Counted from the stretch's first letter, positions 10,530 through 54,679 are shown. The stretch: 64,000 bases of DNA from an uncultured virus (IMG/VR IMGVR_UViG_3300021399_000140) (IMGVR_UViG_3300021399_000140); one strand, 5' to 3'. The notes: generated by a model from the letters alone, not told the origin. Program-made: numbers and translations.

Positions 10530-10530
10530 T

Positions 10531-15482: not shown

Positions 15483-15505
15483 CTAATTGACGAACAAAGA
15501 GAAAG

Positions 15506-15539: not shown

Positions 15540-15566
15540 TTACATTTCCTTCTAAGATGATATAAT
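15538..15566 (+). promoter_or_regulatory. Sigma70-type (early) promoter
   Basis: G-TTTACA-N16-TATAAT with TG extended -10. Confidence 0.65.
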
Positions 15567-15572
15567 TTAATT

Positions 15573-16292: not shown

Positions 16293-16893
16293 GAAGCAGC
16301 TAGCTAAGAAAGCAGGAAAAGGAAAAGATCCTGCATCAGTTAGAAAGATCACTTAGCAGTTTCATGACTTGCTTCAGTCTGCTCCAACATGGAGTGAAGT
16401 CTAGGCAGAGCGTAAGCGAAAGCTAGCAGCCTTAGGAAAAGAGCCAATTGACTTGATGGCGCCAAATGGTGTCAGAAGCGCAGACATGCTTGATGACATC
16501 TACCATACAGAGACATGGCAAGCTATGCAAGTGAAGCTAGCTACTTATGGAATGACATTGCAGATTGAAGACCATGTATGGCTTTGCAACACATTAGCTT
16601 ACCATTATGGATTTTGGCCTCATACACGACTAAGATTCAAAGCATATTGCTAGCTTATATAGAAAGATTTGGATTGTTTAGCAGTAGTTGGACAAAGGAA
16701 GTTTGTCAGCTTTGTCAAGAGAGAAGCTGAATATCTTGACAAGCAGATGAAGATTGATCCACTTTATGATGTTCCAGGAAGAAGAGATGAGCTGAAAGCT
16801 TGGCTCAAGCTGCTTGATGTGATGAAAAGATGCTAGAAGAGAAATGACGCAATTAAGAAGTCAAGAAAGAAGAAGTTATGGTAGATTGGCTGA
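16285..16893 (+). CDS. Hypothetical basic protein
   Basis: Open in code 15; includes the 16453 fragment; overlaps both neighbours. Confidence 0.55.
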
Positions 16894-17993
16894 AAAGAAA
16901 GAGAATGAACGTCCTAGTTGTAGGAGCTAATGGAATGCTTGGAAGTGCAGTTCTTAAGCATTTCCAGAAAGAAAGCATGAAGAAGCATTCAAAAATCAAC
17001 AGTTGCATAGGATTGGCTAAAGAAGACTATCAGCTTGGCAGCTTCTCAACAGCTCTTGCTAGAATGTGTGAAGACAAGATGGTTGATGTAGTGATAAATT
17101 GTGCAGCATATACTGACACAGCTGGTTGTGAAGACAAGCAGAACTTAGAGAAGTCATACATAGCAAATGTCCTTGGTGTAAAGAATTTAGCTTCTACTTG
17201 TGCATACCATAAAGTGAAGCTTGTCCATATCTCAACAGACTATGTCTATTCGCAGCACTCATACATGTACTAGCCATGGATATATGAGTTTCCATGCAAC
17301 ATGTATGGCATGCAGAAGTTGCTTGGTGAAAGAGAGATGCAGCTTGAGTATGCGCATTGGCCAGAAGGACAGCTTATCTGCAGAATGTCATGGCTGTATG
17401 GAAACACAAAGAAGCATCTTTTCATGCACAAGATCTTAGCTGCAGCATATAGAGCTAGAGCATTGATGGCAGAGCAGAACAAAGATGAAGCTGTAATCAA
17501 AGCAGCAGCAGACTAGTTTGGAAGTCCATAGACAGTAGACTCTGCAGCAAGCAAAATCTTGAACTTAGTTTGTGAAGGTGTGTATGGAACAGTCAATTGT
17601 TGGACAAGCATCTTAAATGAGACAAGATTTTCTTTTGCATAGCATATACTCAAAAGCTATGCCAATATGGTTGACAGGCGTCTAGCTCCAGTTAAAGTAG
17701 AAGCATGCAAGTCAACAGACTTTGTCTCTGTTGTAGAGCATCCACTGTTCTCAGACAAGACCGGTCTGCCAAATGAATATCTTGCTTCTAATTCATCATT
17801 TTGCAAGCTTGGAAGTGGTAGAAAGTTCACAAACATGCTGCTTAAGACTAAAAACAGCATTGATGACATTCTTCTAGACTATGGTGCAATAGCTTCGTTC
17901 ATACGAGACAATGGCAATGCTCTTAAAGAGCATGTACTTGGAATGCTTGATGACAAGACAAAAGACATATTGAGCAAATTACCAGAGTAGTAA
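16878..17993 (+). CDS. rfbD: dTDP-4-dehydrorhamnose reductase (RmlD/RfbD-like SDR)
   Basis: GANGMLG, INCAAYT, HISTDYV, YGMQK (YxxxK) and D(TAG=Q)FGSP motifs. Confidence 0.85.
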
Positions 17994-31424: not shown

Positions 31425-31453
31425 ATTATACCGTTTTTGCAATTGCATTGCAA
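31425..31453 (-). promoter_or_regulatory. Sigma70-type promoter for the minus-strand operon
   Basis: TTGCAA-N17-TATAAT on the reverse strand. Confidence 0.6.
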
Positions 31454-31469
31454 TGTAAATATATATACT

Positions 31470-35698: not shown

Positions 35699-37036
35699 AT
35701 GGCATAGACATTTCGAAATCTTACATATCTAGCAGATACAAGCGGCTGCGGTATGTGGAGGCACTTGATGCCATTGCAGTCAGTCAACTGCATAGCATCA
35801 AGTTTCAACATGGTCAATACAGCAACTTAGACACCAATACTAGATCCAAACTACTACAAAGGGATAACATCTGTAACTGTCCAGCGTTGGATATCAGACT
35901 ACAATAGAGAGATCTTCATGAAGCTGCTTAAGCCTGTATGTGACGCTAATGCAGCTTTCTTGATATATGAAATAGATGACTGCATGGCAGCTAAGTACAT
36001 TGAGATGTACAATAGAGGCAGAGAAGCATATGAGTCTCCAAAGATTCAAGCTAACATCAAAGAGATGTTGAACAATGCAGATCTTCTTATAACTACTACT
36101 GACCACATCAAGCAATTCTACCATGATTGGTATGGTGTTCCATTAGAGAACATTGTAGCACTTCCAAATCTTCTTCCAAGATGGTGGTTTGGAGACAGAT
36201 ATGATGAAGAAAGAAAGGTCTAGCAATTCAGCAAGAACAAAGCTCGACCAAGAATTGGAATAATATCGTCTTTAAGCCATTACAATGTAGATGACGTAAG
36301 AATAACTAAAGATGGTCTTGCTGCTAGAAAGAAGAAGAATCCAGATGGAAAAGAAGTTTGGAAGAATGAAGTTGGAGCAGAAGTAGAAGAAGCAGAATTA
36401 AGCCATATCATTGATGACTTGACAGAAATTATTCCAATGATACAGTCAACGGTGCGTGACTTTCAATGGGTGTTTTTTGGATATTGTCCAGATGTGCTTA
36501 AGCCATTAGTTGACAAGAAGCTTATTGAAGTGCATCAAGGCTCTGCAATATTGAACTATGCTTCAATGCTTGAGAACTTGAAGCTGCAAGCTGTAGTAGC
36601 GCCAATCAAAGACTGTGTGTTCAACAGATGCAAGTCATTCATAAAGTACATGGAATGTGCTGCGATAGGTGTTCCATGTTATGCATCAAACTAGCTTCCG
36701 TATTCTCGAGTGATGCCAAAAGAGCAGTTGTATAGCACTGCAGATGAGCTTAAAGCTATGCTTTTGAAGTTGAAGTTCACTTCTGTTGGAATATATTAGA
36801 AGATCATATAGCAGCAATGGAAATGGCTCAATAGTCCAATACATGAAGGAAGCTTTGACTTGAAGAACTTCTGGCTAGAAGACAATCTTAACATACATAT
36901 TGATCTTCGTCGTCTTCGTCAAAAGCCATTGCAGATATCATTCAAGCTTCTAGCTAAGAATTATGAAGCAATGGTCAAAGAAGAGAAAGAAAATACATTG
37001 TTTGAGACGCCTGGTGGCGCAAAGATCATGAAATAA
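35699..37036 (+). CDS. GT-B glycosyltransferase
   Basis: ADTSGCGMWR, YEIDD, ADLLITTT and FNRCKSFIKYMECAAIGVP. Confidence 0.8.
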
Positions 37037-37903: not shown

Positions 37904-37944
37904 GAAGTCTAAACTGGTATGATATCATCAAGAGGAATTTGAAG

Positions 37945-38511
37945 ATGAACCTGATAGAGTTTGACAAGAAATGCAAGTGTGGGGCAGAATTTGTCTGTGT
38001 CAAGATATTAGACAATTGTGATGTTCTTAAAGTTGGAGCAATTTGGCTTCCAGAAAAGAGCTATGACAACTAGATTCTAGCGCATGCATTAGTAGAAGAC
38101 ATTGGCACAACCGCTGAGAAGAAGCTTGGCTTGAAAGTTGGAGAGTATGTTCTTATAGACAGACTTGCTACATTTGCTCATACTGCTCCAATAGCTTTGC
38201 TGAAGTATGACAGCATCATAATGAAAGCAAACAAAGAGAACAATGACTATGAGCCATTAAGAAACTGCGTGTTTGTCGAACCTGACTAGAAAGATGACTT
38301 TACAGATGTTGGTGGAGTATATGTTCAGAACTATGCTGAAAGACTGAATACTGGAACAATAACAAAGATGAATTTAGATCAAGAGAATGTTGGTCCTTTC
38401 AAAGTTGGAAGCAAAGTAATGCTTGTCAAAGGTGGAGACTTTGTCCAAGTTGGAGAGAAGAACATATACATCTACAAGCATGACATGCTTATTTGCACAA
38501 TAGAGGATTAA
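37945..38511 (+). CDS. Co-chaperonin with two tandem GroES-like domains
   Basis: Domain 1 VGAIWLP...IG...LKVGEYVL; domain 2 PLRNCVFVEP...GGVYV...FKVGSKVML; missed by the code-11 track. Confidence 0.7.
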
Positions 38512-38513: not shown

Positions 38514-39305
38514 ATGGAAAACAACTGCAATTATCTGCATATGATAGACAAAAATTCAAGCAAGCCAAAAGTAGTGCTTCCTAGAGATGAAGCTGCAAAC
38601 ATAGTGAGAAGCAAGCTTGCAGACATGCTTCAGCTTTCAGATGACTTGAAGAATGTCAAAAACTAGAAGTCATTAGGTGTTCTTGTAAAAGAGCTGAACT
38701 AGACAATAAAAGATGCAAATAGCTTCATACTTTCTGAATTTTCAGAGACAGTGAAGCAATCAAAGGCAGCAAATTTGAGGTTGTCTAATTTCTTGGACAA
38801 GTACAATGCATTTGGAACATCAAAGCAGTATGTAGTTCTTGAAATGATTCCAAACAATCCAGTTGAAGACAATGATCCTCCATGCGCTGGAGAGAATGTC
38901 CATTTCAAGCATTCTATTGACTTGAACAATGTCTCATTCATTCCTCATATGAATGTCATAGCTTCATCAGAGAAAGAGCTTGAAAGCATGTTTGCTGGAA
39001 AGTACATAATTCCAATACGCTGCACAGACTGCTCTTCAGGAAAAGAGCTTATTGACATAAGTGCATTCATTGAAAGAATATTTGGCTAGAAGCTTACAAA
39101 CATGAAGCCACTTGATGACAAAGATCTTGAGAACTTCAAAGAATTTGGAACATTGACTCCAACTAGCATTGATGACCGTGATGATGACTTGACTGAGCAG
39201 CTTGTCAATCAAAGCAGAAAAGAGCTTAGCAATGACATCTATGAAGATGATGAAGCGCAATTGCCTGAAGATGAGATCAATGAAATAGAGACGAGTTTAG
39301 CATGA
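38514..39305 (+). CDS. Hypothetical protein with acidic C-terminus
   Basis: 38751 and 39102 fragments in frame via TAG; ends TGA. Confidence 0.6.
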
Positions 39306-39565
39306 TAGCAATTCCTCACAACAATGCAGTTCTTTGCAAGCAATTGAACAATTCTACCAATGAAGACAAGAAAGATGGCATAGTGTTTTAGAGAGAAAAT
39401 TTGCCATTGTATGAGGTTGTAGCTGTTGGAGAGAATGTCAAAAAAATACAATTAGACGTTGGCGATGTGATTGTGACAAACTCATAGCCAACTAAGTTCA
39501 ATCTAGATGGTACAATGTTTTTCCTTATTCATGATGACCATATTGCTGGAAAGGTTCAACAATGA
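39302..39565 (+). CDS. groES: GroES/Cpn10-like co-chaperonin
   Basis: PHNNAVLCK, DGIVF, EVVAVG, VGDVIV and LIHDDHIAGKV; 87 aa. Confidence 0.7.
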
Positions 39566-40104
39566 AAACAAAACAAGAAACAACACTGAAATTCACAAAA
39601 GTAAGAAATGTGAAGTCTCCATGTCGTGCACATCCAACAGATGCAGGCATTGACTTCTTTGTTCCAGAAGACTTGTCTAAAGAAACAATTGATGAAAAGA
39701 CAGCGCTTACTAAATCAAGTGTCATGCTTAGTGTAGACAATGGAATTGTAAAAAGCATAGTGCTTGAGCCACGACAGTCAATTTTGATTCCTTCTGGAAT
39801 AAAAGTCAAAGTTCCAGATGGATATATGCTTCAGTTCAACAACAAGTCTGGAGTAGCTTCAAAGAAAGGTCTTATTGTTGGTGCTTCAGTTGTAGATGTT
39901 GGTTATGAAGGTGAATGCCATATTGATGTCCATAATGTGTCAAATAGAAGTCAAGTCATAAATGCTGGTGACAAGATTGTCCAAGCTATTCTTATTCCTG
40001 TAAGCTTTGCAATGCCAGAAGAAGTAGCTTCAGCTGAAGAGCTCTTTGCTGGAAGCAATTCAGAGCGTGGTGAAGGTGGATTTGGTTCTAGTGGAACTAA
40101 GTAA
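39562..40104 (+). CDS. dut: Trimeric dUTPase
   Basis: DAGIDF, KSG, VVDVGYEGE, GDKIVQ and RGEGGFGSSG. Confidence 0.95.
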   Translation: MKTKQETTLKFTKVRNVKSPCRAHPTDAGIDFFVPEDLSKETIDEKTALTKSSVMLSVDNGIVKSIVLEPRQSILIPSGIKVKVPDGYMLQFNNKSGVASKKGLIVGASVVDVGYEGECHIDVHNVSNRSQVINAGDKIVQAILIPVSFAMPEEVASAEELFAGSNSERGEGGFGSSGTK

Positions 40105-40133
40105 GTTTACAACATCAAGCATTTTGATATTAT
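40105..40133 (+). promoter_or_regulatory. Sigma70-type (early) promoter
   Basis: G-TTTACA-N16-TATTAT with TG extension, same design as 15538 and 44516. Confidence 0.6.
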
Positions 40134-40139
40134 AAAAAC

Positions 40140-41396
40140 ATGAAAATTCTTACTGTTCTAGCACGTGGAGTTGAAGGCTGTGGAGTGACAGTCAACTCAA
40201 TAAAGTTCACAGAGTTCGTAAACAAGCAAAAAGGCTATAAAGCTGCATGTGTTGCGAACACTGACATAAAGTGGGGAAGAGGCAATGTCCATAAAGGTGA
40301 CATAAAGCTTCTAAGCTTCACTAAGTAGTTTGATGAGCTTAAAGCTCTTGTAGATGAATATGACAAGATCATATTCATGTGCACACCGTTGAAGAAGTCT
40401 TCAGCTTAGATAAAGAAAAGCTTTGTAGACATTCTTGACTATGCAAAAAGCAAGAAGAAGACTTGTGCATATTGCTAGTTTGACCATAAGATTCGGTCAC
40501 TTAGGACAAACATGTACAGTGATCCAGAATGGTATGGAATTTGGAAGAAGTTTGATGTAGTGTTCACTCACTCTCACACTAATGACTTTGTTGTGAAGTA
40601 TCTTGAGAAGAACAAGATTCCACACAACAGAATTGTCTGTAGAGGTGATGATGGCATTGTGAATCTTTTTGCTATTGACTTTGAAGAGCTTAAGAACAAG
40701 TTCTGGAAGAAGTTTGAAGACAAAGAGCCTAAGACAATAAAGTTCATTGGACGCGATTCTGCTTGGAAAGGTCCATGGGCATTTCGTGACTTGCATTACA
40801 ATTGGCTCATGAAAGATGGTTGGATTGCTTCAGCAGAAGGAATTGGTCTTTCAATTGGCACATTGAATGACATATTCAAGCAGATAAAGCCTAGCAAGAT
40901 TGTGCGTGATGATGTCAACATTGACTACATAAAAGCATCTAAGAAGAATGTAGCAGACATTGATGCTGGAAACATAAAGCTAGAAGCTGGAAATCCAGTA
41001 TACTTCATGCCACCATACAATCATGACACTGCTATGGAAAGACTTAGCAAGTGCTAGTTTGGAATTGAGCTTTTGATGCTTGATGATAATTTCAGCAAAG
41101 ATGTCATTGAGAATGCCATGTTTGAGATTGCTGCTGTAGGTTGCATACCAGTGTTCAGAAAGCGTTGGGCTGACAACTTCAAGCTTGTCAAGAACAGAAC
41201 GCTTGGAAGCTATCAATTTGCAGAGACAGGAATGATTTTTCTTGATGAAGAGAATCCAAAAGCTGCAGTTGAGCTTATGAACATGCTTGCTAAAGACAAG
41301 AAGAAGTATGATGAAGCAAGAGAGACTGCATACAATTTCATGAAGACATTCTTTGACGTCAAGCCAGTATACACTAAACTTCTTTAGGAGCTGTAA
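40140..41396 (+). CDS. agt: DNA alpha-glucosyltransferase homolog (T4 a-gt family)
   Basis: ARGVEGCGVT (T4 ARGLEGCGVT), DHKIRSLRTN, IGRDSAWKG and EIAAVGCIPVF. Confidence 0.85.
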
Positions 41397-41397
41397 G

Positions 41398-42441
41398 ATG
41401 AGAGAGACAGAATTAGATTACGAAGAGTATTTAGCTGCTGGTGCAGCTAAAGCAAAGTACACAGAAATATATTCATCAAAGCATGTGTTTTGCTTTACAC
41501 ATAGTGCAGACTATGATGGAATATTCAGCGGAGAGATTGTAAGGAGATTCTTCAATGGAAAAGTGAAGATAATTCCAATAAACTTTGGAGATGAAGACGC
41601 TAAGAATGTCTTGAAGAAATGGGACTTCACTGGAGCAGATGTGATAATATGTGACTTCTGCTTTGATGATGACATAATGGAAGAGATTGCGTAGACAGCG
41701 CATTCACTTACATGGCTAGACCATCATGCTTCAGCTATTGACAGAATGAAGAAGCTTAAGTCATTTGACAAGTTCTATGGAATTTGGACAACTAAGCATT
41801 CAGGAGCATACAATACTTGGTGCTGGTTCTACAATAACATGAAGCTTACAACTGCTTCAGACAGAGATGATGTTCCAGAGATAATCAACATTGTCTCAAA
41901 GTATGACACATGGACTTTCACACATGCTGAGATGCAGAAGATGATGGCGATACAGCTTGGAATGAAAGCATTAGACATAAAGTTTGGCTCAGAGCTTTTT
42001 GATGTACTTCTTTATGAAGTGAAGAACGATGGAAACACTACATATGACATGTACTAGAACTTGATGAACTAGATCATCTAGACCGGCTCAGCAATTGACA
42101 AGTACAATCAGAACTACAGCTATCGCTCATATGAGCGCATGGCATTTGATGTTGTCTTCAAAGTAAAAGGAAGAAAGCTAGTTGGGTGTGCTTTGAACAT
42201 TGATGCACATTCAGACAGTTTCAGATATGTGTATGACAAAGATCGTCATGACTTTTGTATTTCATTCCATAGACTTGGTGACAAATGCGCTAGCAAATGG
42301 ACATATGGAATATACATCATGAATGACAAGAAAGGAAAGATCAGCGCTATTGACATTGCTTAGCATATAAGTCCTTCTGGTGGTGGTCATCCATCTGCAT
42401 CTGGCGCTACAACTGATGAGCTTATAAAGGAGCTGCAATGA
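41398..42441 (+). CDS. DHH/DHHA1 phosphoesterase
   Basis: HSADYDG, ICDF, WLDHH and GGGHPSASG. Confidence 0.9.
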
Positions 42442-42899
42442 AGCAAGTCATGCATCATTACATCAGTTGGGACACTATAAGTGCATTGTCATGCACTTTA
42501 GCACTTCAACTGAAAGGAAAAGCTGACTTTGACACAATTATTTGCGTTGGCAGAGGTGGAATGGTTCCAGCAAGACTTCTGTCAGAACGACTTGGCATAA
42601 AAGACATACAATTCTGTGACTGCAGATCTTATGTTGGAATATGCAAGCAAGAAGAAGTGCATATCAAAGACACATTGCAAGATGTTGAAGGAAAGCAAGT
42701 TCTTGTAGTAGATGATTGTCTTACATCAGGAAAGACATTAGATGCAGTGTATCAGTTGTTGGCAGACAAGAAAGCACAAAGCATCTACATGGCAGTGCTG
42801 TACAAGAACATAAATGTAGATGATGTGTTTCCAATGTCATGTGCAGCATTGTATGATGCAGACAAAGAATGGCTTGTTTTTCCATGGGAAAATTGTTGA
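42438..42899 (+). CDS. Type I phosphoribosyltransferase (Gpt/Hpt-like)
   Basis: RGGMVPA, VLVVDDCLTSGKT and WLVFPWE. Confidence 0.9.
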   Translation: MKQVMHHYISWDTISALSCTLALQLKGKADFDTIICVGRGGMVPARLLSERLGIKDIQFCDCRSYVGICKQEEVHIKDTLQDVEGKQVLVVDDCLTSGKTLDAVYQLLADKKAQSIYMAVLYKNINVDDVFPMSCAALYDADKEWLVFPWENC

Positions 42900-42907
42900 G
42901 GTGTCAA

Positions 42908-43684
42908 ATGGACAAGAAGAAGTTGTTAGAGTCAAAAGAGTTTGAGAAAGCACTTGTAGAAGGTGCTGAAGCTAAGAAAGAGACAGTCACAACATATAAG
43001 ACTGCAAACAAAGCTGCATTTGAGCAGTTTAGTGAGATAATGTTCAATGCAAACAAGCGAATTCAAGAAATTCTTAGCAAGCGTCGGAAGAACAGAACAG
43101 ACGCAGAGCTTGAAGAAGTCAAGAACTTCAAGCAACTTGTAAGGCAAATGTACTTTTAGGCATAGCATTTGCTCTCTACTGAGAAGGTTGAAGCTGGAAA
43201 GAAGACAAAAATAGACAAGATTGTCGATAAGCTTGTTCCAGTGCTCTATATTCTTAGATATATTGAAGCTGATGCGCTTGAACAGAAGCTTGGACAATAT
43301 GGAATAAAATTAGACCATATGCCAACACTTGACTATCTATATGAAGATTTAGCAGACGAAGCAAAAAAGCAAGCAGTCAAAGACATATTTGCTAGTGCTA
43401 AAGGAATCAAAGACAAGATAAACAGCAACAACGAAGCTATTGGAACAAGCATATACACAAAGAAAGTTCCAATTGAGCTACAATATGACAAAGGAAACAA
43501 CAACATTGGTCTTAAGCCTGGCGACTTCAGAAAGCTTGTTGACATGAAGCTCAAGCTTGACATGGCAAAGTCAAAAGAGCAGAAAGACAAAGTTGATGAG
43601 AAGATCCAAGACCAAGCTGAAGAGAAGCAGTTTGAAATAGCTAGAGCTGAGCTTGTACGTGATGGCTTGACTAAGTTGCAATAA
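42908..43684 (+). CDS. Hypothetical helical protein
   Basis: GAGGTG RBS; two fragments joined by TAG. Confidence 0.65.
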
Positions 43685-43731
43685 AATCAAAGTAAATAGT
43701 TCTAGAAATTCAACATAAAGGAACTACTATC

Positions 43732-44433
43732 ATGATAGAAATGGTCTTTGAGAAGGTATATACGCAATACCATTGCAAGCAAAAGCTTCAGGCATTGTCA
43801 GAATATCTTGGAAAGATTCCTGGCTCAGACAGCAAGAAGTTCGTGAAGATGCTTGTGTTTGTCAAAGGTGGTCCAGCAATCTACAACATTAGCGACATAA
43901 AGATATCTCCATGCATTGGAGATGGAACAGCTACAACTACACCTGGTCCAAAGAAGGTGCAAATCATCTACACCGGAGATGAGAACTCACAAGTTATGAA
44001 GATGAAGCAGTTTGCAAATGCTTGCAAGACAATTCTTGGTGCACTTGCAGATGTTGATGAGAAAGAAGTAGTTCTTGAGGCAGCCCTTGAAGGAAAAGAG
44101 AACGCTGGTCATTCATTTAGATTCTATTACGACAATTCCCGTGCATTTGCAATTCTTGTTAAGAATGCAAATGTTGAAGGAATTGAGCAGTTCCTTAATG
44201 ACTATGAAGGTGATCTTGAAGAAGCAATTTCTCTTCCAAAGACAAGGTCAATAACAGGAAAGAAGAATCCAAAGCCAAAGTCATGGAAAGATGACTATGT
44301 GCTAGTAGATGTGTCTGACACATGTGGACATAAAGTTCGCAGATGGAAGCGGAAGGATATGATGCCAGGTGGTCCGGATATGCTTGACCAAGCACGTTCC
44401 GGTGAAAAAACCGATTGGTGGTCAGGCAAATAA
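43732..44433 (+). CDS. Hypothetical protein
   Basis: TAG-free 233 aa ORF after GTAAATA and AAAGGA. Confidence 0.7.
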   Translation: MIEMVFEKVYTQYHCKQKLQALSEYLGKIPGSDSKKFVKMLVFVKGGPAIYNISDIKISPCIGDGTATTTPGPKKVQIIYTGDENSQVMKMKQFANACKTILGALADVDEKEVVLEAALEGKENAGHSFRFYYDNSRAFAILVKNANVEGIEQFLNDYEGDLEEAISLPKTRSITGKKNPKPKSWKDDYVLVDVSDTCGHKVRRWKRKDMMPGGPDMLDQARSGEKTDWWSGK

Positions 44434-44458
44434 TAAGCTACTGCATAGTTTATTATAG

Positions 44459-44487
44459 TTGAAGGCTAGCATTTTGCTAGCCTTCAA
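44459..44487 (+). terminator. Inverted repeat, probable terminator
   Basis: TTGAAGGCTAGCA-TTT-TGCTAGCCTTCAA perfect stem. Confidence 0.7.
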
Positions 44488-44515
44488 TAGTCTAAAATTC
44501 AAAGCTGTTTATGTT

Positions 44516-44607
44516 GTTTACATGTTTGTGCATTATGATATTATATTATTGTTATGTCATGAAAGTCTAGTATCTTTAAAGACGTGAATGGTCTAACAAT
44601 GTATGGT
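44516..44607 (+). promoter_or_regulatory. Tandem early-type and middle-type promoters of the DNA polymerase gene
   Basis: GTTTACA-N16-TATTAT at 44516-44544; GTCTAA-N4-GTATGGT at 44591-44607. Confidence 0.55.
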
Positions 44608-44615
44608 ATACATGT

Positions 44616-47459
44616 ATGAGCAATTCAATATTTTCAAACGCAATATATCTAGATGACATTCCAAAAGAGTAGTGGAGAGACTACATTGGAAATGGATATA
44701 GGTCTGCATGTTATTTGACGAATGCAGAGAAAGAGGGACAAGTAGTTCTTTTTGGCTTTGACACAGCAGGAAATCCAAAGACATTTGTCTGTCCATGGAA
44801 AAGCTACATCAAATACAATGTGATGTACAAGACAGATGAGACTGACATCTATGGACATTTTGTAGCGACTAAATGGTTCAAGTCAAAGTATGAGCGTGAC
44901 AATTATGTCAAAGAAGCTAATGGCATGAAGATTGTAGAGTGCTTGAAGCCAGAACAAGAGCTTCTTCATTTCTTGTTTGATGGTGAAGTCTTGAAGATGG
45001 ACTTCAACAAGCAGCCAGTCAGAATGCATTATTTCGATATTGAGACTGAGATTAGCGACTAGTTTGAGAAGCCAGTTGATGCAAGAAATCGCATCAACAT
45101 GATGACAATATATGACAGCTAGACAGAAAAGTTCTACACTTGGAGCTTGTAGAAATGCACATTAGACTTCAATGAAGATCCAATATGCAACTATCCAAAA
45201 GACAAGTTTGTTCTGTTTGACAACTTCAATGATGATGAGACTGCGCTTCTTGAGCATTTTCTTGATTGGATGGAAGACAACTATGCTGACATAAACATAA
45301 CATGGAATGGTCGAGCATATGACTTGCCATATCTTGTCAGAAGAATTGAGAATGTTCTTGGAAAAGCTGATGCTAGACGGTTGAGTCCAGTTGGAAGATA
45401 CTTCATAAAAGATGTAAATCATGACAATGAGCGTGCTGATGTAGCTGCTGACATTGAAGTGAGCATCTCTGGTCTTTTCATTGCAGACTGTCTTGTGTTC
45501 TACAGAGACAAGTTTGGTGTAGCAGGATGCACACTTGATGGTGGCTACAGCTTAGACAATGTTGGTGAGCATGAAGGTTGTGGACACAAAGTCAAGTATC
45601 AAGGAACACTTAAAGACTTGTACTTGAAAGATTGGCAGAAGTTCTATGAGTACAACCTTCGAGATGTAGACCTTCTTAAGAGAATTGATGACAAATGCAA
45701 GATGGTTCAGCTTGCAAGACAGATAACTTCATTTGGCTTGACTGACTACAACTAGATCTATGGCTCAATTGCATATCTTATTGGCTCAGTGATGGCATTC
45801 TCAAAGACTGAGATGGGTGGAAAAGTGTTCAACTCATACATGAATGAGAAGAAGCACTTTGACAGTTTTGAAGGTGCATTTGTGTTTCCAACTATTCCAG
45901 GTGTCTATAGAGATGGAATTGGATGCATTGACTTCGCTTCACTATATCCATCAAATATAAGATCAATCAATGCAAGTCCTGAGACATATGTTGGAAAGCT
46001 TCTTGTTCAGCATCTTCATGAAGATGGCAGCTTGATGGCTATTGATGAGCTTCATGAGCCAATGTTCAACATATTTGATGACAATATAGCAAAAGCTAAG
46101 ACAGTAGCTGGACTTTATCTCAAGCTTCCAAATGGAAAGAGAAAGAAAGTCACAGTTGAGCAAGTTCGCCAACTGATAGAGACACAATGCATCTACACAA
46201 CTAACAACACATTGTTCTTGAAGCATGAGAAGAAATGGGGCGTTGTAGCTAAGTGGTGTGAGCATTTCTACAATCTTCGAAAAAGCATCAAGAAAGAAGA
46301 GATGAAAGCCCTTCACAAGCTTTAGACAGAAGGCGACAAACTTACAGAAGAAGAGAAGATCTTGAATGAGACAATAGAAGAGAACTCTCATACAGGTCAG
46401 ATTGGCGTAAAGGCAATGATAAACTCCATTTATGGAATAATGGGAACTCCGCATTCTCCTATTGCAAATCCAGACATTGCTCAAAGCATCACAAGACAAG
46501 GAAGATTCTGCAATCAGACTACAGAGAAGTTCATATTGAAGCTTTTCAAAGAGAGATTTGGTCTTCCAGAAGATGTTACGACTGTAGCAGTTGGTGGAGA
46601 TACAGACTCATAGTTTGTCAACTTAGCAGCTATAAGCAACTACTTGAGAAAGCAGAAGCCAGATCTTCCAAAGCAAATATACAAATGGCCAAAAGAGTGG
46701 AAGAAGAAGTTCTGGGACATAACCAGCGACATCATTGAGAAAGATGTAAATCCATTTGTGAGAAAGCTTGTAGCTGACTATTGCCATACTACACAAAGCA
46801 ATGTTTTGACTTATGAGCTTGAGTACATGAGTGCAATTGGAATATATGAAGGAAAGAAGCACTATGCTACATTGAAGATATTCAATGAAGGAGATCCTGT
46901 TGACGTTGTTAAGTATGCTGGAATTGAGCTTAAGAAAGCGCAGGTTCCAAAGAACATGAAGACATTCCTTGCTGACATATATGATGGAGTCTTGAAGCAT
47001 GACTGGCAAGAGAAAGAGTATGATGAGTATGTCAACAAGCTTTATGAGAAGTTTGGAAAGTTCACTATTGATGAAGTGTCATTCTGGAAAGGGTACAACA
47101 CAGAAAGAACTGCTGCTGGATTCTTGACAATGAACAAAGGAACTACTGGAATAGCGAAAGCTTGCATATACTACAACTAGATAATCGAGAAGCTTGGACT
47201 TGGAAAGCAGTATGACGAGATAAGAGTTGGTGACAAAGTAAGATTTTGCTACATTGAGCCAACAAACAAGTATGGAATAAATCAGATTGCATACAAAGAT
47301 GGACAATGGCCAAAAGAATTTGCACAACTTTTCAAAGTAGACTATCATGTGATGTTCAACAAGATAATACTTGATCCATTGAAGAGGTTCAGAGAAGCTT
47401 GCCATTTTGAGACAAAAGATCCAAGCAAGCAAGTTGTGTTTGACATATTCAGTTTGTAA
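44616..47459 (+). CDS. gp43: Family B DNA polymerase (T4 gp43-like) with 3'-5' exonuclease
   Basis: FDIET, WNGRAYDLPY, YNLRDV, DFASLYPS, KAMINSIYG, GDTDS and KKHYA; six fragments joined by TAG. Confidence 0.95.
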
Positions 47460-47468
47460 GGAGAGAAG

Positions 47469-48557
47469 ATGAGAATAATTGAAGAGCAATAGCTTGACTT
47501 TGATGATTTGATGATGTCACCAAAGCGAAGCACATTGAATTCACGGTCAGAAGTAAGCTTGTTCAGAGATTTTTACTGGACAAGCAAAGATGGTAAAGAG
47601 AATTCACTTAACTGCATTCCAGTGATAATAGCTAACATGGGAACTATTGGCACACCTAAGATGGCAACTATTGCTGCTAAGCGCGGATTCATGTGCGCAT
47701 TAGAGAAGCATATTCAAGCTTCTGACATTCTCAAGCTGTATGAAGACTTGAAAAGTTGGGAAGTCCAAGAGTGTTAGAAGGTTGGAGCTTATAGAGACAG
47801 AGTGATGCCAACATTTGGTCTAAAAGAAAACATTGATGTTCTTTTAGCACTTAAGAATGTTGGTCATGATGTGAAGTGCATATGCATAGATGTTCCAAAT
47901 GGATATGTACCAAAGTTCATAGGCAAAGTGAGAGAAATCAGGGCTATTTGTCCTAATGCTCTTATATTTGCAGGAAATGTAGTGACTGGAGACATCTGCC
48001 AAGACATAATTCTTGCTGGTGGAAATGTCGCAAAAGTTGGAATTGGACCAGGTGCAGCATGCACTACTAGAAAGCAGACTGGAGTTGGGCGTCCTCAAGC
48101 AAGTGCTGTAATTGAATGTGCTGATGCTTGTCATCAAGTTGATGGTTTCTGCTGCAGTGATGGTGGATGCAAGACTCCTGGAGACATAGCAAAAGCATTT
48201 GGTTGTGGTGCAGATTTTGTAATGTGTGGTGGAATGTTTGCTGGCGCTGAAGAGGCTGAAGGTGAAATAGTGTATTTAGACAACAAGCCACACAAGCTGT
48301 TCTATGGAATGAGCTCTAACTATGCTCAAGAGAAGCACTTTGGTGGAAGAAGAAAGTACTCTACATCAGAAGGAAGAGAGAAGTACATTCCAGTAGTTGG
48401 CAGCATCAATGACATATTTGATGACATTGAAGGCGGTCTTAAATCAGCAATGACATACATTGGAGCAAAGAAGCTCAAGAACATACCAAAGAACTGCACA
48501 TTCTACAAAGTCAACCATCAGCTCAACATGAAGTTTGACAACTGCAAAGATGCTTGA
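47469..48557 (+). CDS. guaC: GMP reductase
   Basis: LDFDDL..PKRSTL.SRSEV, ANM, KVGIGPGAACTTR, SDGG, FYGMSS and SEGR. Confidence 0.92.
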
Positions 48558-48601
48558 TTCTAGTCTTGTAAGATATATTTTAGCTGTTGAAAGGACAATG
48601 T

Positions 48602-48913
48602 ATGAAATCAAAAGAAGAACTGATATAGATGTAGCATGAAGTCTGCATAAAAAGACTTATTGACCAACTAAACGAGCGTCAAGGTAATGCTTATGTAAGA
48701 AAAGATGAGCTTGAGAACAATTTGAATAACATGCGAGTAGCTGTTGAAGCGTGCGGAGATCCAGATTTATGCAAATTCACTGAACGTGGCATTGTTGACA
48801 CAACTATAGGAATATTCTAGGATCTTAAGAAAGTAGATGAAGAGTTGAATGCTATCAATGCTGCAAAAGACTATTTGCAGCTAGATTCACATGTTGGAAT
48901 TTTGAAAGGATAA
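48602..48913 (+). CDS. Hypothetical protein
   Basis: Open in code 15; AAAGGA upstream; ends TAA. Confidence 0.6.
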
Positions 48914-48917
48914 GAAG

Positions 48918-49367
48918 ATGTTAGGAAGAGTGTACTATGCAAGCGGTTGGTTCAATCCAAAAGCAGATGAAGAAGAGCGTAGAGTCTTGAAGAAGCTTCG
49001 TGATCTTGGCTTTGACGTATTCTCTCCACGTGATGAGTTTGTTCTTAGTCCAAATGAAGGACCAGAGAAACGAAAAGAGATATTTGAGCAAAATGTCAGA
49101 GAGATGAACAAGTGCGACATCTTCTTTGGAATAACTGACTACAAAGACATGGGAACATTGTGGGAGTGTGGCTGCGTTCATGGAATAAACACTTAGACTG
49201 CAAAGAAGCGCAAGATTGTCTACTACGCTGAGACACTTCCAGAAGGAGCGCCATTCAATGTAATGCTTGCAGAGCCAGCAGATGTAGTCATCACTAAGTT
49301 TGAAGATCTTGACAAGCTTCCTGAATGGCTTGAGACTGGCCATAAGTATGAAGGAGCTATACAATGA
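48918..49367 (+). CDS. Nucleoside 2'-deoxyribosyltransferase / nucleotide N-hydrolase (NDT-MilB-Rcl) family
   Basis: VYYASGWF, VFSPRD, DMGTLWECG and FNVML. Confidence 0.85.
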
Positions 49368-49759
49368 ATGTCAGTAGACGAAACTTTTTAGCTAGTTTAG
49401 CAGCTACAGCAATTGTGCCAGCTTTTGCAGCAGGTGTTTGCACTTCATATGAAGCATCAACATTTGACAAAATAAATGCACAACGCTTAATAAAGCATTA
49501 CCACACTGCTATAAAAAATACAATATATGAAGTCTTTAATGAATATAGTTATGAGCATGTAGATTGGAGTACATGTGTTTCAATGTAGAATAGACTATTC
49601 AAGAAGCTAGTTGATGCTAAAATAACAGATAAGTTCTATGCATGCTATACATATTCTTCATTAAGTCAAGTCAAGCATGAATTGTCATTGTCAGTGTCAT
49701 TGATGCCGACTAAGATACTTGAAGCAACAATTATAACAGGAACAATATTATATGTCTGA
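49364..49759 (+). CDS. Small protein with a twin-arginine (Tat)-like signal
   Basis: MNVSRRNFLASLAATAIVPAFA. Confidence 0.65.
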
Positions 49760-50342
49760 CGAATATAAGAAGTTCATCAAGAATGACATTGCGACATTCT
49801 CAAAAGACATTGACATTCTTAGGTCATTAGTCAGATACTAGAATTGCCATAGAAATGTTGATGAGACTGTCGCCGAGCATAGCTTCTATGTAGCTATTCT
49901 TGTGTTGAAGCTTAGAGAGTACTATAACTTCAATCTTGAGACAGCATTGAAGACAGCTTTAGTGCATGATGTGATGGAAGCAAAGATAAGTGATGTTCCT
50001 CACAACATCAAGCTTGCAAATCCTAAGCTTGCTGCTGCCCTTGAAGAAGCAGAAGCTAATGTCACTAAAGACATGCTTTCTGATGAAGCTTTGCAGCTTA
50101 TACGTGACTTCAATCATGGAACTACTCCAGAAGGTCTTGCTTGCCAGTTAGGTGACATTCTTTCAGTAGTGATGTACTCTAATGCAGAGCTTGTAAGTGG
50201 AAACAAAGTGTTCAACTACATCGCTATAAAAGCAATTGAGCGCTGCAAGCAAGTTGTACAAGCATTAGAGCCATACATCAATGCTCCATATACAAGCGTA
50301 TAGATAATGAACAAGATAAATTAGATCATCAACATCTACTAA
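49752..50342 (+). CDS. HD-domain 5'-deoxynucleotidase (YfbR/DatZ-like)
   Basis: LVRY, ETVAEHSFYV and ALVHDVMEAKISDVP. Confidence 0.88.
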
Positions 50343-50348
50343 GGAACA

Positions 50349-50882
50349 ATGATGATTTGCGTAAATCTTTTTGGCGCTCCAGGTTCTGGAAAAAGCACAT
50401 GTGCAGCATATACATTCGCTAAGCTCAAGATGCTTGGAGTTAACTGCGAGCTTGTGACAGAGTTCGCTAAAGACAAAGTGTGGGAAGACAACAAGACAGC
50501 ATTGCACAATCAAGTGTATGTGTTTGCTAAGCAGTACTACAGACTAGCAAGATGCGCTGACAAAGTTGATGTTGTCATAACAGACAGTCCATTAGCATTG
50601 TCTCCATTCTACAATACTGACAAAGACATACATGAGCCATTGAAGCTTCTTGCATACAAGCTGTCTTAGAAGTACAACAACTTGAACTACTTCTTGAGAA
50701 GAATAAAGAAGTACAATCCAGTTGGAAGACTTGAGACAGAAGAAGAAAGCAATCAAAAAGCAATTGGCTTGAAGAACATGCTTTGTGAATACTAGATTCC
50801 ATTCAAAGAGATTGACGGAGACTTGATGTCAGCAGACATAATTGTCCAAGACATTCAAGAAGCTTTGTCTAAAGGAGTATGA
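50349..50882 (+). CDS. P-loop kinase (AAA_28/NadR-like)
   Basis: NLFGAPGSGKST, ELVTEFAKD, ITDSPL and YNPVGR. Confidence 0.85.
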
Positions 50883-50889
50883 TTTCAGT

Positions 50890-52110
50890 ATGATAGATGA
50901 AACTTTGCTAGATTTCCAAGTATTAGCTAAGCCAGAGAAAGATCTTTTCAAGAAGATCTAGAGCAATGCTAAGTTCAAGACTATTTCAGATGTTCTGAAA
51001 ACAAAAGTTGGAATAAACAACTTCTACAACTTCAGCATCTGCATTAAGTCAACAATAGCAATGAGAGACATTGTCTTGAACTCGCAATTTGTGAGTGGTT
51101 GGGCAAGAAGCAGCCAAGTTCTGAATGACAATGACTCAAAGTTCTCAGTGTACAAGTTCTTGTCAAGATCCAAAGATGAGACAAATGCTTGGATAAAGTA
51201 GATGGAAGAGCTTGAAGCTGCAGGCCATTCAATGGACAACATGCGAGCTTTGATCTATCTAGATTCAATAGGAGACTATGCAATATCTATAGATATACTT
51301 CATCTACTCTATTTGACAATTGTTCTAGATTGCATCCATGAAAACTTAGATTAGTTGCATGATGACTTCAAGCTTGAAGTCAAATGGTTCATTGACAAAT
51401 TTCAAACACTTCTTCTAGAGTATGATGTCCAATGGCAAGATTTCAAGAAAAGCATGTGTGATGCTGCATTTGCAGATTTTCCAGCTATAAATGGAGCAAA
51501 TGTAGACATAGCAAACATAGCTAGAGAAGATGTCTACTCTATAGCAGCGACATACAGTGTCATTGGACAGATTTGGAGACATAGAACATTGTTGAAGCAG
51601 TATTCAGCAAAGACTTATTCTGAAGAAGTTGAAGTAGCTAAGATGTGCACAAAGCTGTACAACTTCAATGACATTGGAATGCATAAAGACATTGCAGATC
51701 TTGTACGAAGCTAGACAGAGAAAGCTACAAACATCTATGGGCTTTGTCAAGGAACAATAACTCCATTCAAGTTTACTGGAACTGTTGGAGCTATACATAA
51801 AGCACTTAGCTAGAGAACTTGCTTCATAAATGACAGTCCATAGTTCAAAGACGCATTTGAGCAATTTGCTAGAAAATATCCAAAACTTCCACTTCTTCCA
51901 CCATGCAAGTTGAACACTACTTCATCAAACAGCTGCTATGTTGGGTATGTGAATGAAAGCAGGTTGCGTGGAGAAGAGAAGACATAGGTTGCATGTCCAA
52001 TTTGGTGCAAGTCTCAAGGAAAGCTTGATGCATACAAGACTTCACTTGAATCATCTAAGACGCAGTGGTATCTAGACAATCTAGATCTTTGGAAGAATGT
52101 CTGCAAGTGA
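50890..52110 (+). CDS. Divergent ThyX/Thy1-like flavin-dependent protein (possibly two domains)
   Basis: QIWRHRT and LS(Q)RTC in the second half; WARSS and DNMRAL in the first half; lies between nucleotide kinases. Confidence 0.55.
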
Positions 52111-52133
52111 GTACAATATAACAGGAGATTGAT

Positions 52134-52739
52134 ATGAAGACATATTGCATTAGTTTTGAAGGAATTGACAAAGCTGGAAAATGGCAAGTCATGAAGTATG
52201 TAGACATTCTTGCAAACCATAAGTATGTTCTTATGGACAGAGGCTTGATGTCAAACATCACATATGCACGAATATTCAAGCGAGACTACTAGTATGACAT
52301 AGCCCAATTCAAAGATTGGGTGTTTGTGTATCTTTTCTGTGATGAAGATGATTGGAATGTTCGTTGCAAGCTTACTAATGAGCCAACTATTGACTATACA
52401 AAGCATAAGTTAGAATTTGACAAGACTTATGAAATGTTTACTAAAGCTGGATTCAAGACATTGTCAGCTAATACTTCACATGTGACGCCTTATGATCTAG
52501 CATTAGAGATAATTCGTCAGATTGAAGAGCTTAACAAAGCGCAAGAGCTTCTTGAAGCTAAAGAAGCTGCTGATAAAGCAGCACCTTAGGTTGAGGCTCC
52601 TCAAGCAGAAGTGATTTCAGCTGAAAGCAATTAGCTTGAACCAGATCCACCACCTGCAGCTGAACCAATTGATTATGAACCAACTACATGTGATGATTGC
52701 ACTACATGTGATGGATGCACTACAACATGTGGTGAATGA
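52134..52739 (+). CDS. dNMP (thymidylate-like) kinase with Pro/Glu- and Cys-rich tail
   Basis: SFEGIDKAGK, MDRGLMSNITYA and VYL; tail TTCDDCTTCDGCTTTCGE; AGGAG RBS. Confidence 0.8.
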
Positions 52740-52846: not shown

Positions 52847-54679
52847 ATGGCATTTTCATGGAATCCAGCTGCAGACAGACAGCAGCATTCAGCATAGCAA
52901 AATGACAGTCCATTGACTGATAGAAATCCTAACTACAACACATTCAACAGAGTGAATGATGACATAGCTAGAGCAGTGTCGTTGAAGTCAGTCATTGGAA
53001 AGAACGTAGCACAGCAAAGACCATTAGCAAATCCAATTTGGCAGACAATCTTTGGAACAGATCTGCTTGCAATGCCAGTTGCTACAAACAAGACTGAGCG
53101 AATTGCACAATACAGAAAGATATCAGAGTTCACAGAATGCCAATGGTGCTTAGATGAGATCTGTGATGACTTCTTGCATGAAGATCCTTCTACTGGAAAG
53201 ATATTGACGTTGAAACTTCCAGATGGAAAAGAGAACCTCAATGAGACAAGACGCTAGATAATACAAGAAGAGTTTGAGCGTTTCATTGGTCTTTTCAAGC
53301 TTCGTGAAGAAGGCTACACTATAATACGCCGTTTTCTTGTTGAAGGTGAGCTTGCATGGGAAAACATCATAAACAACAAGTATGAAGACAAAGGAATAAT
53401 TGGAGTAAAGTTCCTTAGACCAGAGTACTATGAGACATTGATAGACACAGTCACCGGTGAAAGAATAGGAATATTCTTTGACACAGAAAAGCTTGCTACA
53501 GACATGCGTCAGATACTTTCTAACTCATATCTTGGTTCTGCTTAGATATTCAACTCAATTGTTCCAACTACAGTGTCATTCTCTTTCAATAGAGACACTT
53601 GCATTCCATTGCTGTATTCATAGATAACTCACATTGACTCTGGCTTCTACTCACCAGATGGCATGATATGCTATCCAATACTTGAATAGACAAAGCAAGC
53701 ATATCATCAACTTGCATTGCTTCAAGATGCAGCAGTGATTCTTCGTGTCACTAGAGCTCCAGAAAGACTGTTGTTCAACATCTCAACTGGAAAGATGAAC
53801 TAGAACTACGCTGATGAGTATGTAAGAAACTTCGCAATGGGCTTGAAGCAGAAGAAAGTTGTGTCACCTGGTGGAGACATCGCAGGAGTGTACAATCCAG
53901 TCTCAATGCTTGAGTCTTACATCTTTGGAAAGTCAGATGGAAATGATGGAACTTCAATAGAGTCTGTTGGTTCATCTGCTGACTATGATCAGCTTGGTGA
54001 CATCGAGTATTTCTTAAGAAGATTCATGAAGCAACTTAAAGTTCCATTCTCTCGCTACAAGACTCCAGAAAACACAATGGAGAAGAATGACACAATAAGC
54101 CAAGAAGAGTATGCATTCTCAAGATTTGTCATTCGTCTACAAAGACGTGTTGCGCTTGGCTTCAAGAATGGTTTCATTGTAGATCTTAAGCTGCGTGGAA
54201 TGTGGGACAAGTACTAGCTTAAAGATTCAGATCTTGACATACAGTTCTCAAAGCCTGCATTGTATGACTTGTATGAGACATAGCAGCAGATTGAGACAAG
54301 AATGAACATCTACAAGTCAGTTGTTGATCAAGAAGAGTTCAGCAAGATTGTAGCAATGAAGAAGTTTCTTGGATATTCTGATGCTGATGTTGAAGAGAAC
54401 TTCAGATGCCTTATTGAAGAGAAGCAGAGAACACAACTTGCAGAATGGTATGGTGAGCAACTTAATTCTGAAGGACCAGCTGTGTTTGACAGTCCAGTCG
54501 CAATCAAAGGAAAGACTAACACCGGTGAAGAGGAAACTAAACCAGAAGGTGAGGGTGGAGAAGGAAAAGAAGGTGAAGAGGGCGAAGGCAGTGAAGGTGA
54601 AGGAGAAGGCGGAGAAGAAGGTGGAGAAGAGGAAGAGAAGAAAGAAGCTCCACCACCAGCTACATTTGGTCTTGGCTAA
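52847..54679 (+). CDS. gp20: Portal vertex protein (T4 gp20-like)
   Basis: LDEICDD, RRFLVEG, LLQDAAVILRVTRAPERLLFNISTGKM, DIEYF...LKVPFSR; acidic Gly/Glu tail. Confidence 0.93.

Follow-up and report, generated by a model that had tools for sequence, protein, structure and literature searches.

A tandem double-ThyX-fold protein in the PolB gene island of an uncultured T4-like phage and its possible role in DNA base modification

The window analysed here, a 64,000-nucleotide stretch of the uncultured virus IMGVR_UViG_3300021399_000140, contains an island of nucleotide metabolism genes around the gene for a family B DNA polymerase (PolB), at positions 39562–52739. A previous sequence-only reading of this DNA proposed that the island encodes the synthesis of a non-canonical DNA base: a divergent ThyX-like flavoenzyme would stand in for the dCMP hydroxymethylase gp42 of phage T4, and a homolog of T4 DNA alpha-glucosyltransferase (a-gt) would add sugar to the product. 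Every gene named in that proposal was found in the island by Pfam or PHROG profiles or by fold, the gene calls being made with TAG read as glutamine. Our main finding concerns the ThyX-like protein (50890..52110, +; 406 aa), which has no PHROG or Pfam match and was recognized by its fold. According to structural models it is a tandem double ThyX fold; it is related to proteins of phages with hypermodified thymidine, and in related loci its gene is accompanied by genes for a nucleoside 2-deoxyribosyltransferase (NDT) and an HD phosphohydrolase. We tentatively suggest that this double-ThyX protein makes a C5-substituted dUMP, in the simplest case 5-hydroxymethyl-dUMP (5hmdUMP), which is then phosphorylated, incorporated into DNA and glycosylated.

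Homologs of about 406 aa place the start codon of the ThyX-like gene at the Met at 50890. The family comprises 42 clusters at 90% identity, and among 1.84 billion representative sequences there were 8 matches at E≤1e-30 and 67 at E≤1e-3. None of the sources named it other than 'hypothetical protein', and it was not found in GenBank phages, IMG/VR or GTDB genomes. The AlphaFold (AF2) model from 26 sequences had a pLDDT of 89.3 and a pTM of 0.88. In an exhaustive structure search, five ThyX-family chains were the top five of 48,161, and the next chain had a Z score of 3.0. The N-terminal half matched 5chp (T. maritima) with Z 10.5, 2af6 (M. tuberculosis) with 10.2, 4p5a (polyoxin PolB, a ThyX-like UMP/dUMP methylase) with 9.8, 3ah5 (H. 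pylori) with 9.5 and 4fzb (PBCV-1) with 9.1; for 5chp, 174 residues were aligned with an rmsd of 3.5. The match spans residues 3–192. All 26 rows listed by Foldseek were ThyX-family chains, from E 5e-4. Since the structural match ends at residue 192 and an RHR triplet lies at 230–232, the C-terminal half (190–406) was folded alone. Its model (seven sequences, pLDDT 74.5) was led in the structure search by the identical five ThyX chains, with Z 5.8, 5.4, 5.1, 4.5 and 3.8, and 24 of 24 listed Foldseek rows were ThyX chains, at E 0.16 or weaker. As judged from these models, the 406-aa protein is a tandem double ThyX fold in both halves, and the recognition of a divergent ThyX-like gene in the sequence-only reading is borne out.

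Profiles of the whole family and of the C-half recovered no ThyX among PDB sequences. Alignment by hhalign with six genuine phage ThyX proteins (alignment A3) placed residues 216–342 on ThyX 81–227 (E 2.4e-4), and the C-half alone aligned with canonical ThyX at E 8.2e-5. RHR 230–232, which is invariant in the family, is superposed on the canonical RHR, and R309 on the last invariant ThyX Arg. The C-half lacks counterparts of the SQRY and E..AR motifs of canonical ThyX. In the N-half, LNS stands at the RHR position, and there is an invariant W71-A72-R73-S74 together with D116 and R119; WARS 71–74 is possibly the counterpart of the S-x-R-Y substrate loop. Canonical ThyX (T. maritima TM0449, M. 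tuberculosis ThyX, PBCV-1 A674R), whose fold is matched by both halves and whose RHR and last invariant Arg are kept in the C-half, is a homotetramer of about 220-aa subunits, whereas the window protein is one fused chain with four extra invariant Cys residues (311, 339, 349 and 369), which suggest a metal site. We infer that the protein may be a fused pseudo-dimer with its catalytic residues divided between the halves. In T. maritima ThyX, the Arg equivalent to R309 presumably touches the uracil ring. The alignment of R309 and the presence of a dUTPase argue for dUMP rather than dCMP as the substrate, and the evidence points to a uracil-derived base rather than 5-hydroxymethylcytosine (hmC).

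The relatives of this protein lead to phages with hypermodified thymidine. Weak matches of its hidden Markov model are proteins of about 330–440 aa with RHR at the corresponding position in 47 of the 55 full-length ones; among 28 remote relatives scanned, Pfam Thy1 gave weak N-half matches in 17, with 5 of the 28 at the cut-off. Through two relatives, homologs were found in cultured phages: SP-15 gp130, YerA41 gp081, phiXF1 gp88 and Carin-5 gp49, and further ones in vB_Yru_GN1 (the close relative of YerA41), Va2, GXN1 and the Vibrio phages 1.031.O and 150E35-1. A superfamily profile of the cultured-phage homologs and six metagenomic relatives was aligned by hhalign with the window family over 294 columns in both halves (probability 99.5%, E 2.2e-23), and all 38 sequences have R59, W71, A72, D116, R230, R309 and R358. 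Profile comparison makes the 406-aa protein a remote member of the superfamily of SP-15 gp130, YerA41 gp081 and Carin-5 gp49. These proteins have the same two-half architecture (about 360–413 aa) and share with the window family the motifs WAR(S/T)S, (Q/M)D..R, Q..RHR and (S/Q)R.C and a Cys-rich tail. The two groups have 14% identity over the aligned columns, and an insertion of about 30 residues behind RHR is present in the window family and not in the SP-15 gp130 group. In the subgroup of SP-15, Carin-5, Va2 and GXN1 (L020, L022, L023 and L024; alignment A4), RQH or RHA stands instead of RHR, which is retained in YerA41, phiXF1 and most metagenomic members. The neighbours in phages of this subgroup include FabG-like, ACP-like, TPP-binding and MazG genes.

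As reported from experiments, thymidine is replaced in SP-15, YerA41 and Carin-5 by a form whose long C5 linker is phosphorylated and glycosylated (PMC13697223, PMC12686479, PMC9023294, PMC5977210). The text on SP-15 (PMC5977210, 2018) puts forward gp9 as the thymidylate synthase and gp130 as a hydroxymethyluridylate synthase, and Table 1 of PMC12686479 lists YerA41 QSM00782.1 (gp081) as a thymidylate synthase variant for 5hmdUMP. A ThyX-like protein as hmdUMP synthase is therefore already in print as the SP-15 hypothesis, and to call the route undescribed, as the sequence-only reading did, was too strong. In other respects that reading is partly supported, by the conserved NDT/HD module, the flanking kinases and the relatives in phages with hypermodified thymidine. 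No description of the NDT–HD–double-ThyX module or of the tandem nature of the protein was found in the literature searched, although supplementary tables may annotate the genes; nor was a ThyX-type hydroxymethylase found there as demonstrated experimentally. Among the literature listed for phiXF1, GXN1 and the Vibrio phages, nothing concerned their DNA chemistry. SP-15 and Carin-5 have an additional conventional thymidylate synthase (TS)-type gene beside the double-ThyX gene, so in these two phages the latter is not the sole candidate for thymidylate synthase.

The order of genes in the window is NDT, a 131-aa open reading frame (ORF), HD, kinase 1, double-ThyX and kinase 2. As a trio, NDT, HD and double-ThyX were found in eight of 11 metagenome loci (L002, L003, L004, L005, L007, L008, L011 and L012), the remaining three being contigs shorter than 1.8 kb; L008 and L011 (37–41% identity) have the order ThyX, NDT, HD. 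Because relatives repeat the gene order, the clustering of the island is not a matter of chance. NDT scored above the Pfam cut-off in all eight cultured carriers of double-ThyX and in none of five control phages with ordinary ThyX or ThyA (L5, Carmen17, HRTV-5, S-RIM2 and T4); these are small samples, and some of the carriers are not independent of each other, since 1.031.O and 150E35-1 are closely related. The NDT gene directly adjoins double-ThyX in phiXF1, Va2, 1.031.O and 150E35-1, and lies 1.6 kb from it in SP-15, 2.3 kb in YerA41 and 11 kb in Carin-5. GXN1 has the order of the window, with NDT at 29294, HD at 29788 and ThyX at 30396. HD_3 is present in four of five cultured double-ThyX phages, yet tens of kb from double-ThyX; HD adjacency is confined to GXN1, 1.031.O, 150E35-1 and the clade of the window. 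The SP-15 gp130 group and the window thus have the NDT partner in common, and often the HD partner. In L005, a relative with 63% identity, RmlC, RmlD, DUF1848 and a second NDT-like gene (Nuc_deoxyri_tr2) stand between HD and kinase 1 (5427–8851), and a NAD-kinase-like gene follows kinase 2. On the contig of the distant relative L011, the topoisomerase II genes are split, with Hint/intein-like and DUF559 endonuclease ORFs between the parts (9650–16091); ankyrin-repeat and leucine-rich-repeat proteins are encoded there as well.

The NDT (48918..49367, +; PF05014, 52 bits against a cut-off of 28.8) had been described as an NDT/MilB-like hydrolase, and the first half of this label is retained. When a profile of ten module-linked NDTs was ranked against PDB, 17 true NDT/PDT sequences led (2e-20 to 5e-4), DNPH1 (5-hydroxymethyl-dUMP N-hydrolase) came at E 0.045 or weaker, and MilB-type CMP N-glycosidase at E 0.61; this ranking rules out the MilB-like identity. 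Residues Y6, D77, E83 and N114 are invariant, and E83, in the G-T-x-x-E-x-G motif, is presumably the catalytic Glu. The NDT is probably of the true deoxyribosyltransferase type, for which base exchange would fit at least as well as the depletion of a competing nucleotide. The HD protein, of the YfbR/HDDC2/OxsA type (49752..50342, +), matched PF12917 with 58.8 bits (7.2e-16; cut-off 25.9) and PF13023 with 58 bits (1.4e-15; cut-off 22.5), and in PDB 2cqz (3e-10), 1xx7 (1.4e-9) and YfbR 2paq (7e-4). Judging by the types of these two enzymes, the chemistry probably takes place on deoxynucleosides, and the kinases would restore the phosphates. A C5 one-carbon transferase is also paired with an NDT-fold protein in MilA/MilB and BcmA/BcmB. 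MilA and BcmA have the ThyA fold; MilB and BcmB are N-glycosidases, whereas the window NDT ranks with true deoxyribosyltransferases.

The a-gt homolog (40140..41396, +; phrog_2888, 1.6e-53) scored 81.9 bits with PF11440 (cut-off 25), and its residues 1–403 align with residues 2–384 of T4 AGT 1xv5 at E 8.5e-32. It has 27–29% identity to T-even a-gt, a level too low to tell the substrate base and the sugar. The metagenomic a-gt family comprises 45 clusters, from 100% down to 27% identity. Its members occur on contigs of 162,032 and 301,049 bp, sizes identical to those of the contigs carrying ThyX-like P0003 and P0016, and in L003 both a-gt and double-ThyX are present, 9 kb apart. In this clade, a-gt and double-ThyX appear to co-occur on large contigs.

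The absence of gp42 from the window, claimed before, was confirmed. Neither PF00303 (ThyA) nor PF02511 (Thy1) was matched in the 59 scanned ORFs of the window or in G001, a 51-kb record that overlaps the window at positions about 4k–55k. In tblastn searches, T4 gp42 and b-gt gave no significant match in the window (gp42 at best E 3.4, b-gt no row at E up to 10) and none in the 11 related loci, the best E values over window and loci being 2.2 to 3.4; the positive controls in the same search, T4 a-gt and gp43, scored 5e-33 and 5e-39. ThyA and canonical ThyX were likewise absent from these loci. In a set of 5.8 billion proteins, the best 120 of 3,252 matches of T4 gp42 were all at least 58% identical to it, and contigs of 263,544, 162,032 and 301,049 bp were absent among these 120, outside of which a distant gp42 would rank. 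Gene 42 and b-gt of T4 adjoin gene 43, and the window phage has the ThyX-like gene near its polymerase.

Based on these observations, the proposed pathway would run as follows. The dUTPase would provide dUMP, and the double-ThyX protein would put the one-carbon unit of methylene-tetrahydrofolate on its C5, yielding, in place of dTMP or alongside it, a C5-substituted dUMP, in the simplest case 5-hydroxymethyl-dUMP. The C-half would contribute RHR and the last invariant ThyX Arg; residues of the substrate loop and of the E..AR type would, tentatively, come from the N-half, and only between the halves would complete active sites form. The two flanking kinases would lift the modified dUMP towards the triphosphate, and PolB would build it into DNA. 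The HD nucleotidase and the NDT would act on deoxynucleosides, where they would either deplete thymidine or swap bases. Once the DNA is replicated, a sugar would be added to the hydroxyl by the a-gt homolog, perhaps together with a second glycosyltransferase and an RmlD-like enzyme; GuaC and the phosphoribosyltransferase (PRTase) would most simply serve purine salvage. We speculate further that a ThyX-fold C5 hydroxymethylase and a-gt could yield alpha-glucosyl-5-hydroxymethyl-uracil DNA, a counterpart of base J, with NDT and HD handling the modified base or removing thymine by base exchange; in so specific a form the idea is unlikely.

A modified-pyrimidine pathway is favoured by the kinship with the sole carbon-transfer candidates of three phages with hypermodified thymidine, by the NDT partner, absent from phages with ordinary thymidylate synthase, by the second conventional TS in SP-15 and Carin-5, by the co-occurring DNA glucosyltransferase and by the absence of gp42 from the place it has in T4. 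Its predicted logic is the same as that described for 5hmdU in SPO1, PhiW-14, ViI and M6, where dUMP is modified as a nucleotide, a dedicated kinase takes part and the base is decorated once the DNA has been replicated (PMC8989533). Those phages rely on a classical enzyme of the ThyA family, together with a 5hmdU DNA kinase or aGPT-Pplase, and for neither of the latter two was there a PHROG or Pfam match in the window.

Several results weigh against the proposed pathway. Some concern the enzyme. Pfam gave no family for the 406-aa protein at E≤0.01, hence no Thy1 (PF02511). The N-half aligned non-significantly with canonical ThyX by hhalign (E 0.29; this alignment sets D116/R119 on E..AR). No single domain of the protein holds both GH..EH and SQRY of canonical ThyX, and RHR followed by S-x-R-Y within one domain, as expected of ThyX, does not occur in the protein. 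The role of SP-15 gp130 is a hypothesis, and the functions of the superfamily as a whole are putative. In YerA41 and Va2 the double-ThyX gene is the only one of TS type, which fits either reading. Cellular two-domain ThyX-like proteins occur as well, annotated as FAD-dependent thymidylate synthase (a Bacillota cluster, TM 0.69), and the double-ThyX architecture may represent a plain thymidylate synthase. Other results concern the sugar and the DNA. GenBank phages contain 651 records homologous to a-gt, of which the 30 listed are all T-even-type with 27–29% identity, the organism tallies being mostly Escherichia, Klebsiella and Shigella phages; by this precedent, a-gt goes with hmC and not with 5-hydroxymethyluracil. 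Among cultured double-ThyX phages of the SP-15 group, a-gt was detected in none of five, but the control genomes were equally silent, so this count carries no weight. The search for gp42 and ThyA covered 64 kb of about 264 kb, so a copy may lie elsewhere. The phage DNA was assembled from ordinary shotgun metagenomes of several studies, unlike that of YerA41 and Carin-5; because it sequences normally, any modification of it would be small or absent.

The strongest of the other explanations, doubtful but to be taken seriously, is T-even chemistry: gp42 and a dCTPase would be encoded in the unseen 200 kb or so, a-gt would glucosylate hmC, the double-ThyX protein would be the thymidylate synthase and the rest would be salvage. 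The window shares with the T4 hmC pathway (gp42, gp56, gp1, a-gt and b-gt) the a-gt homolog and the grouping of nucleotide genes around the polymerase, along with a T4-type portal (Portal_T4, 2.9e-74), a gp55-type late sigma factor (5.2e-21) and a gp43-type PolB; the listed a-gt homologs of GenBank speak for the same chemistry, as do the cellular two-domain proteins with their thymidylate synthase name. ThyX is the usual thymidylate synthase in many large phages, according to PMC7824862, and the window has no other TS. In the T4 pathway, however, carbon is transferred by a ThyA fold, whereas the candidate of the window has a ThyX fold; the T4 site of gene 42 and b-gt near gene 43 is here held by double-ThyX, and gp42 was found neither in the 64 kb nor in the flanks of the relatives. 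The link with NDT (8/8 versus 0/5) and the presence in three phages with hypermodified thymidine are unexpected for a housekeeping thymidylate synthase, and SP-15 and Carin-5 have a separate conventional one.

It is improbable that the island serves only the salvage and rebalancing of deoxynucleotides in an AT-rich phage of an anaerobic host, where the ThyX-like protein would make dTMP, HD would produce deoxynucleosides, NDT would swap their bases, the kinases would re-phosphorylate them, GuaC and PRTase would interconvert purines, and a-gt would be a relic or act on something other than DNA. The true transferase type of the NDT and the YfbR-type 5'-deoxynucleotidase are as this explanation would have them; GuaC, PRTase and the anaerobic NrdD/NrdG of the window are ordinary salvage or synthesis genes, the GC content of the window is 29–41%, and the DNA sequences normally in shotgun metagenomes. 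However, the a-gt homolog is full-length compared with T4 AGT and has been kept through a clade of 45 clusters, so it is no relic; to our knowledge, all known members of the a-gt family act on DNA. The tie of the module to phages with hypermodified thymidine would also be left without an explanation.

A bulky adduct of the SP-15 type, in which double-ThyX would begin a long dihydroxypentyl-type C5 chain that is then phosphorylated and glycosylated, is very improbable: homology to gp130, gp081 and gp49 and the glycosyltransferases and nucleotide-sugar enzyme of the window are consistent with it, and three radical-SAM genes with a flavin reductase (27073–31397) could conceivably perform carbon-chain chemistry, but there is no ACP-like, FabG-like or TPP gene beside double-ThyX, unlike in SP-15, Carin-5, Va2 and the Vibrio phages, the polymerase is PolB and not the family A type described for SP-15-like phages (PMC13697223), and the genome was readily sequenced and assembled, whereas YerA41 and Carin-5 are reported to have resisted sequencing (PMC12686479, PMC7354516).

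The remaining genes of the island are all on the + strand. It begins with a trimeric dUTPase (39562..40104; PF00692, 1.6e-17; phrog_135, 4e-41) with a visible C-terminal GGFGSSG-type motif and a DCD match far weaker than that to dUTPase (5.4e-8), which speaks against a bifunctional dCTP deaminase; it would supply dUMP and exclude dUTP from DNA. The a-gt homolog is followed by a DHH-family phosphoesterase (41353..42441; phrog_4771, 2.1e-33; no Pfam match), a small PRTase (42438..42899; PF00156, 1.2e-16; phrog_8995, 2.2e-15), which we take to be roughly Gpt-sized, and two ORFs of unknown function of 271 and 233 aa (42869..44433), which lack Pfam and PHROG matches and have 65–66% identity in L003. 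PolB, of the T4 gp43 type (44616..47459; phrog_262, 4.2e-135; PF00136/PF03104), was hit by T4 gp43 at 5e-39 in tblastn. Downstream of it lies a GMP reductase/IMPDH-family gene (GuaC; 47469..48557; PF00478, 6.9e-66, 223 bits) without CBS domains, in which the Cys motif GPGAACTTR is visible. The 131-aa ORF between NDT and HD (49364..49759) has a TAT-signal-like N-terminus (PF10518, E 0.0017, below the cut-off) and no known function. Kinase 1 (50349..50882) is a nucleotide-kinase-like P-loop protein (AAA_28, 1.7e-8; phrog_2107 'thymidylate kinase', 2.4e-15). Kinase 2 (52134..52739), with a Tmk-like P-loop FEGIDKAGK, had Thymidylate_kin at E 0.0046 (17.1 bits, cut-off 27) and PDB 2axp (SPbeta YorR) at E 0.028, and its assignment as a kinase is the weakest of the gene calls. 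The C-terminal tail of kinase 2 is rich in Cys and Thr: TTCDDCTTCDGCTTTCGE. Outside the island, a second glycosyltransferase-like gene just upstream (35699..37036, +; phrog_7162, 9.3e-19; no Pfam match) is possibly a member of the system, and an RmlD-like nucleotide-sugar reductase/epimerase (16878..17993, +; PF04321, 4.2e-40) is possibly the source of the sugar donor.

Comparative evidence supports reading TAG as a Gln sense codon throughout the window (1–64000). Under translation table 11 there are 33 ORFs of at least 150 aa (6,775 aa summed, longest 348 aa), and with TAG open there are 81 (25,581 aa summed, longest 1,777 aa); on the + strand, which is densely coding once TAG is read as Gln, opening TGA or TAA gives a far smaller gain. 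TAG is assigned to Gln because standard-code homologs carry it at aligned TAG positions: 15 of 33 in-frame positions have Gln in such homologs, and at Q308 and Q366 of the ThyX-like protein, both TAG-encoded, all 25 family members have Gln. A 1,747-aa ORF at 1431–6674 contains 26 in-frame TAGs and the PolB ORF contains eight. ARAGORN found no tRNA, suppressor or other, in the window. L007, L008, L011 and L012, which carry distant members of the ThyX-like family, follow the standard code.

By its portal, late sigma factor and polymerase, the phage is T4-like, and these features with TAG recoding set it apart from the phages of the SP-15 group with their family A polymerase. The genome is about 264 kb: an identical copy of a-gt (P0117) is on a contig of 263,544 bp, and record G001 was estimated to be 21% complete, which is consistent with that contig. 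The phage is one of ruminant guts, its sequence being present in metagenomes from the gut of goat, sheep and cattle; with P1, the possible source, left out, studies P2 and P3 contain at least 72% of the sampled words; these metagenome runs are assembled contigs, in which modified bases cannot show.

An LpxR homolog (lipid A deacylase, outer membrane) at 25928–26836 (PF09982, 2.2e-55) implies a Gram-negative host and a possible remodelling of the cell surface. The three radical-SAM genes comprise one with Pfam Radical_SAM (27073–28032), one recognized by PHROG only (28029–28835) and one (30411–31397, −) with a weak Pfam radical-SAM match and 309 bits for phrog_24834, whose function is unknown; beside them are a methyltransferase-like gene (28827–29801, −) and an NADPH-dependent FMN reductase (29764–30414, −), and the cluster could be part of a system for modification of nucleic acids or cofactors. 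In a 744-aa protein (31437–33671), an NTP_transf_2 nucleotidyltransferase domain is joined to a P-loop kinase domain resembling Zeta toxin (phrog_5268, 1.8e-64). Two GroES/Cpn10-like genes, at 37939–38511 (190 aa, with an N-terminal extension) and 39302–39565, are both barely above the Pfam cut-off. The T4-type portal (52847–54679) ends in a long acidic Gly/Glu-rich tail. Adjoining ORFs at 56128–57387 (419 aa) and 57849–59126 (425 aa), without family match and kept in L003, look like paralogs by eye, having common N- and C-terminal motifs.

For the start of the bulky thymidine modifications of SP-15, YerA41 and Carin-5, the double-ThyX family is the only candidate for the transfer of carbon. 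The window presents a distant branch of this family in a simple context, with dUTPase, two kinases, NDT, HD and a-gt and no genes that build a side chain, in a phage whose DNA sequences normally; it thus offers a tractable system for the question whether a ThyX protein hydroxymethylates or methylates and for the role of the constant NDT partner. If the proposed pathway is true, it would be a second, evolutionarily independent enzyme class initiating hypermodification of phage DNA, and the trio of NDT, HD and double-ThyX would serve as a three-gene marker for phages with modified DNA in metagenomes. If the speculation on alpha-glucosyl-5-hydroxymethyl-uracil is also true, the same trio would be a portable 'thymidine replacement' cassette, common to SP-15, YerA41, Carin-5 and many uncultured phages.

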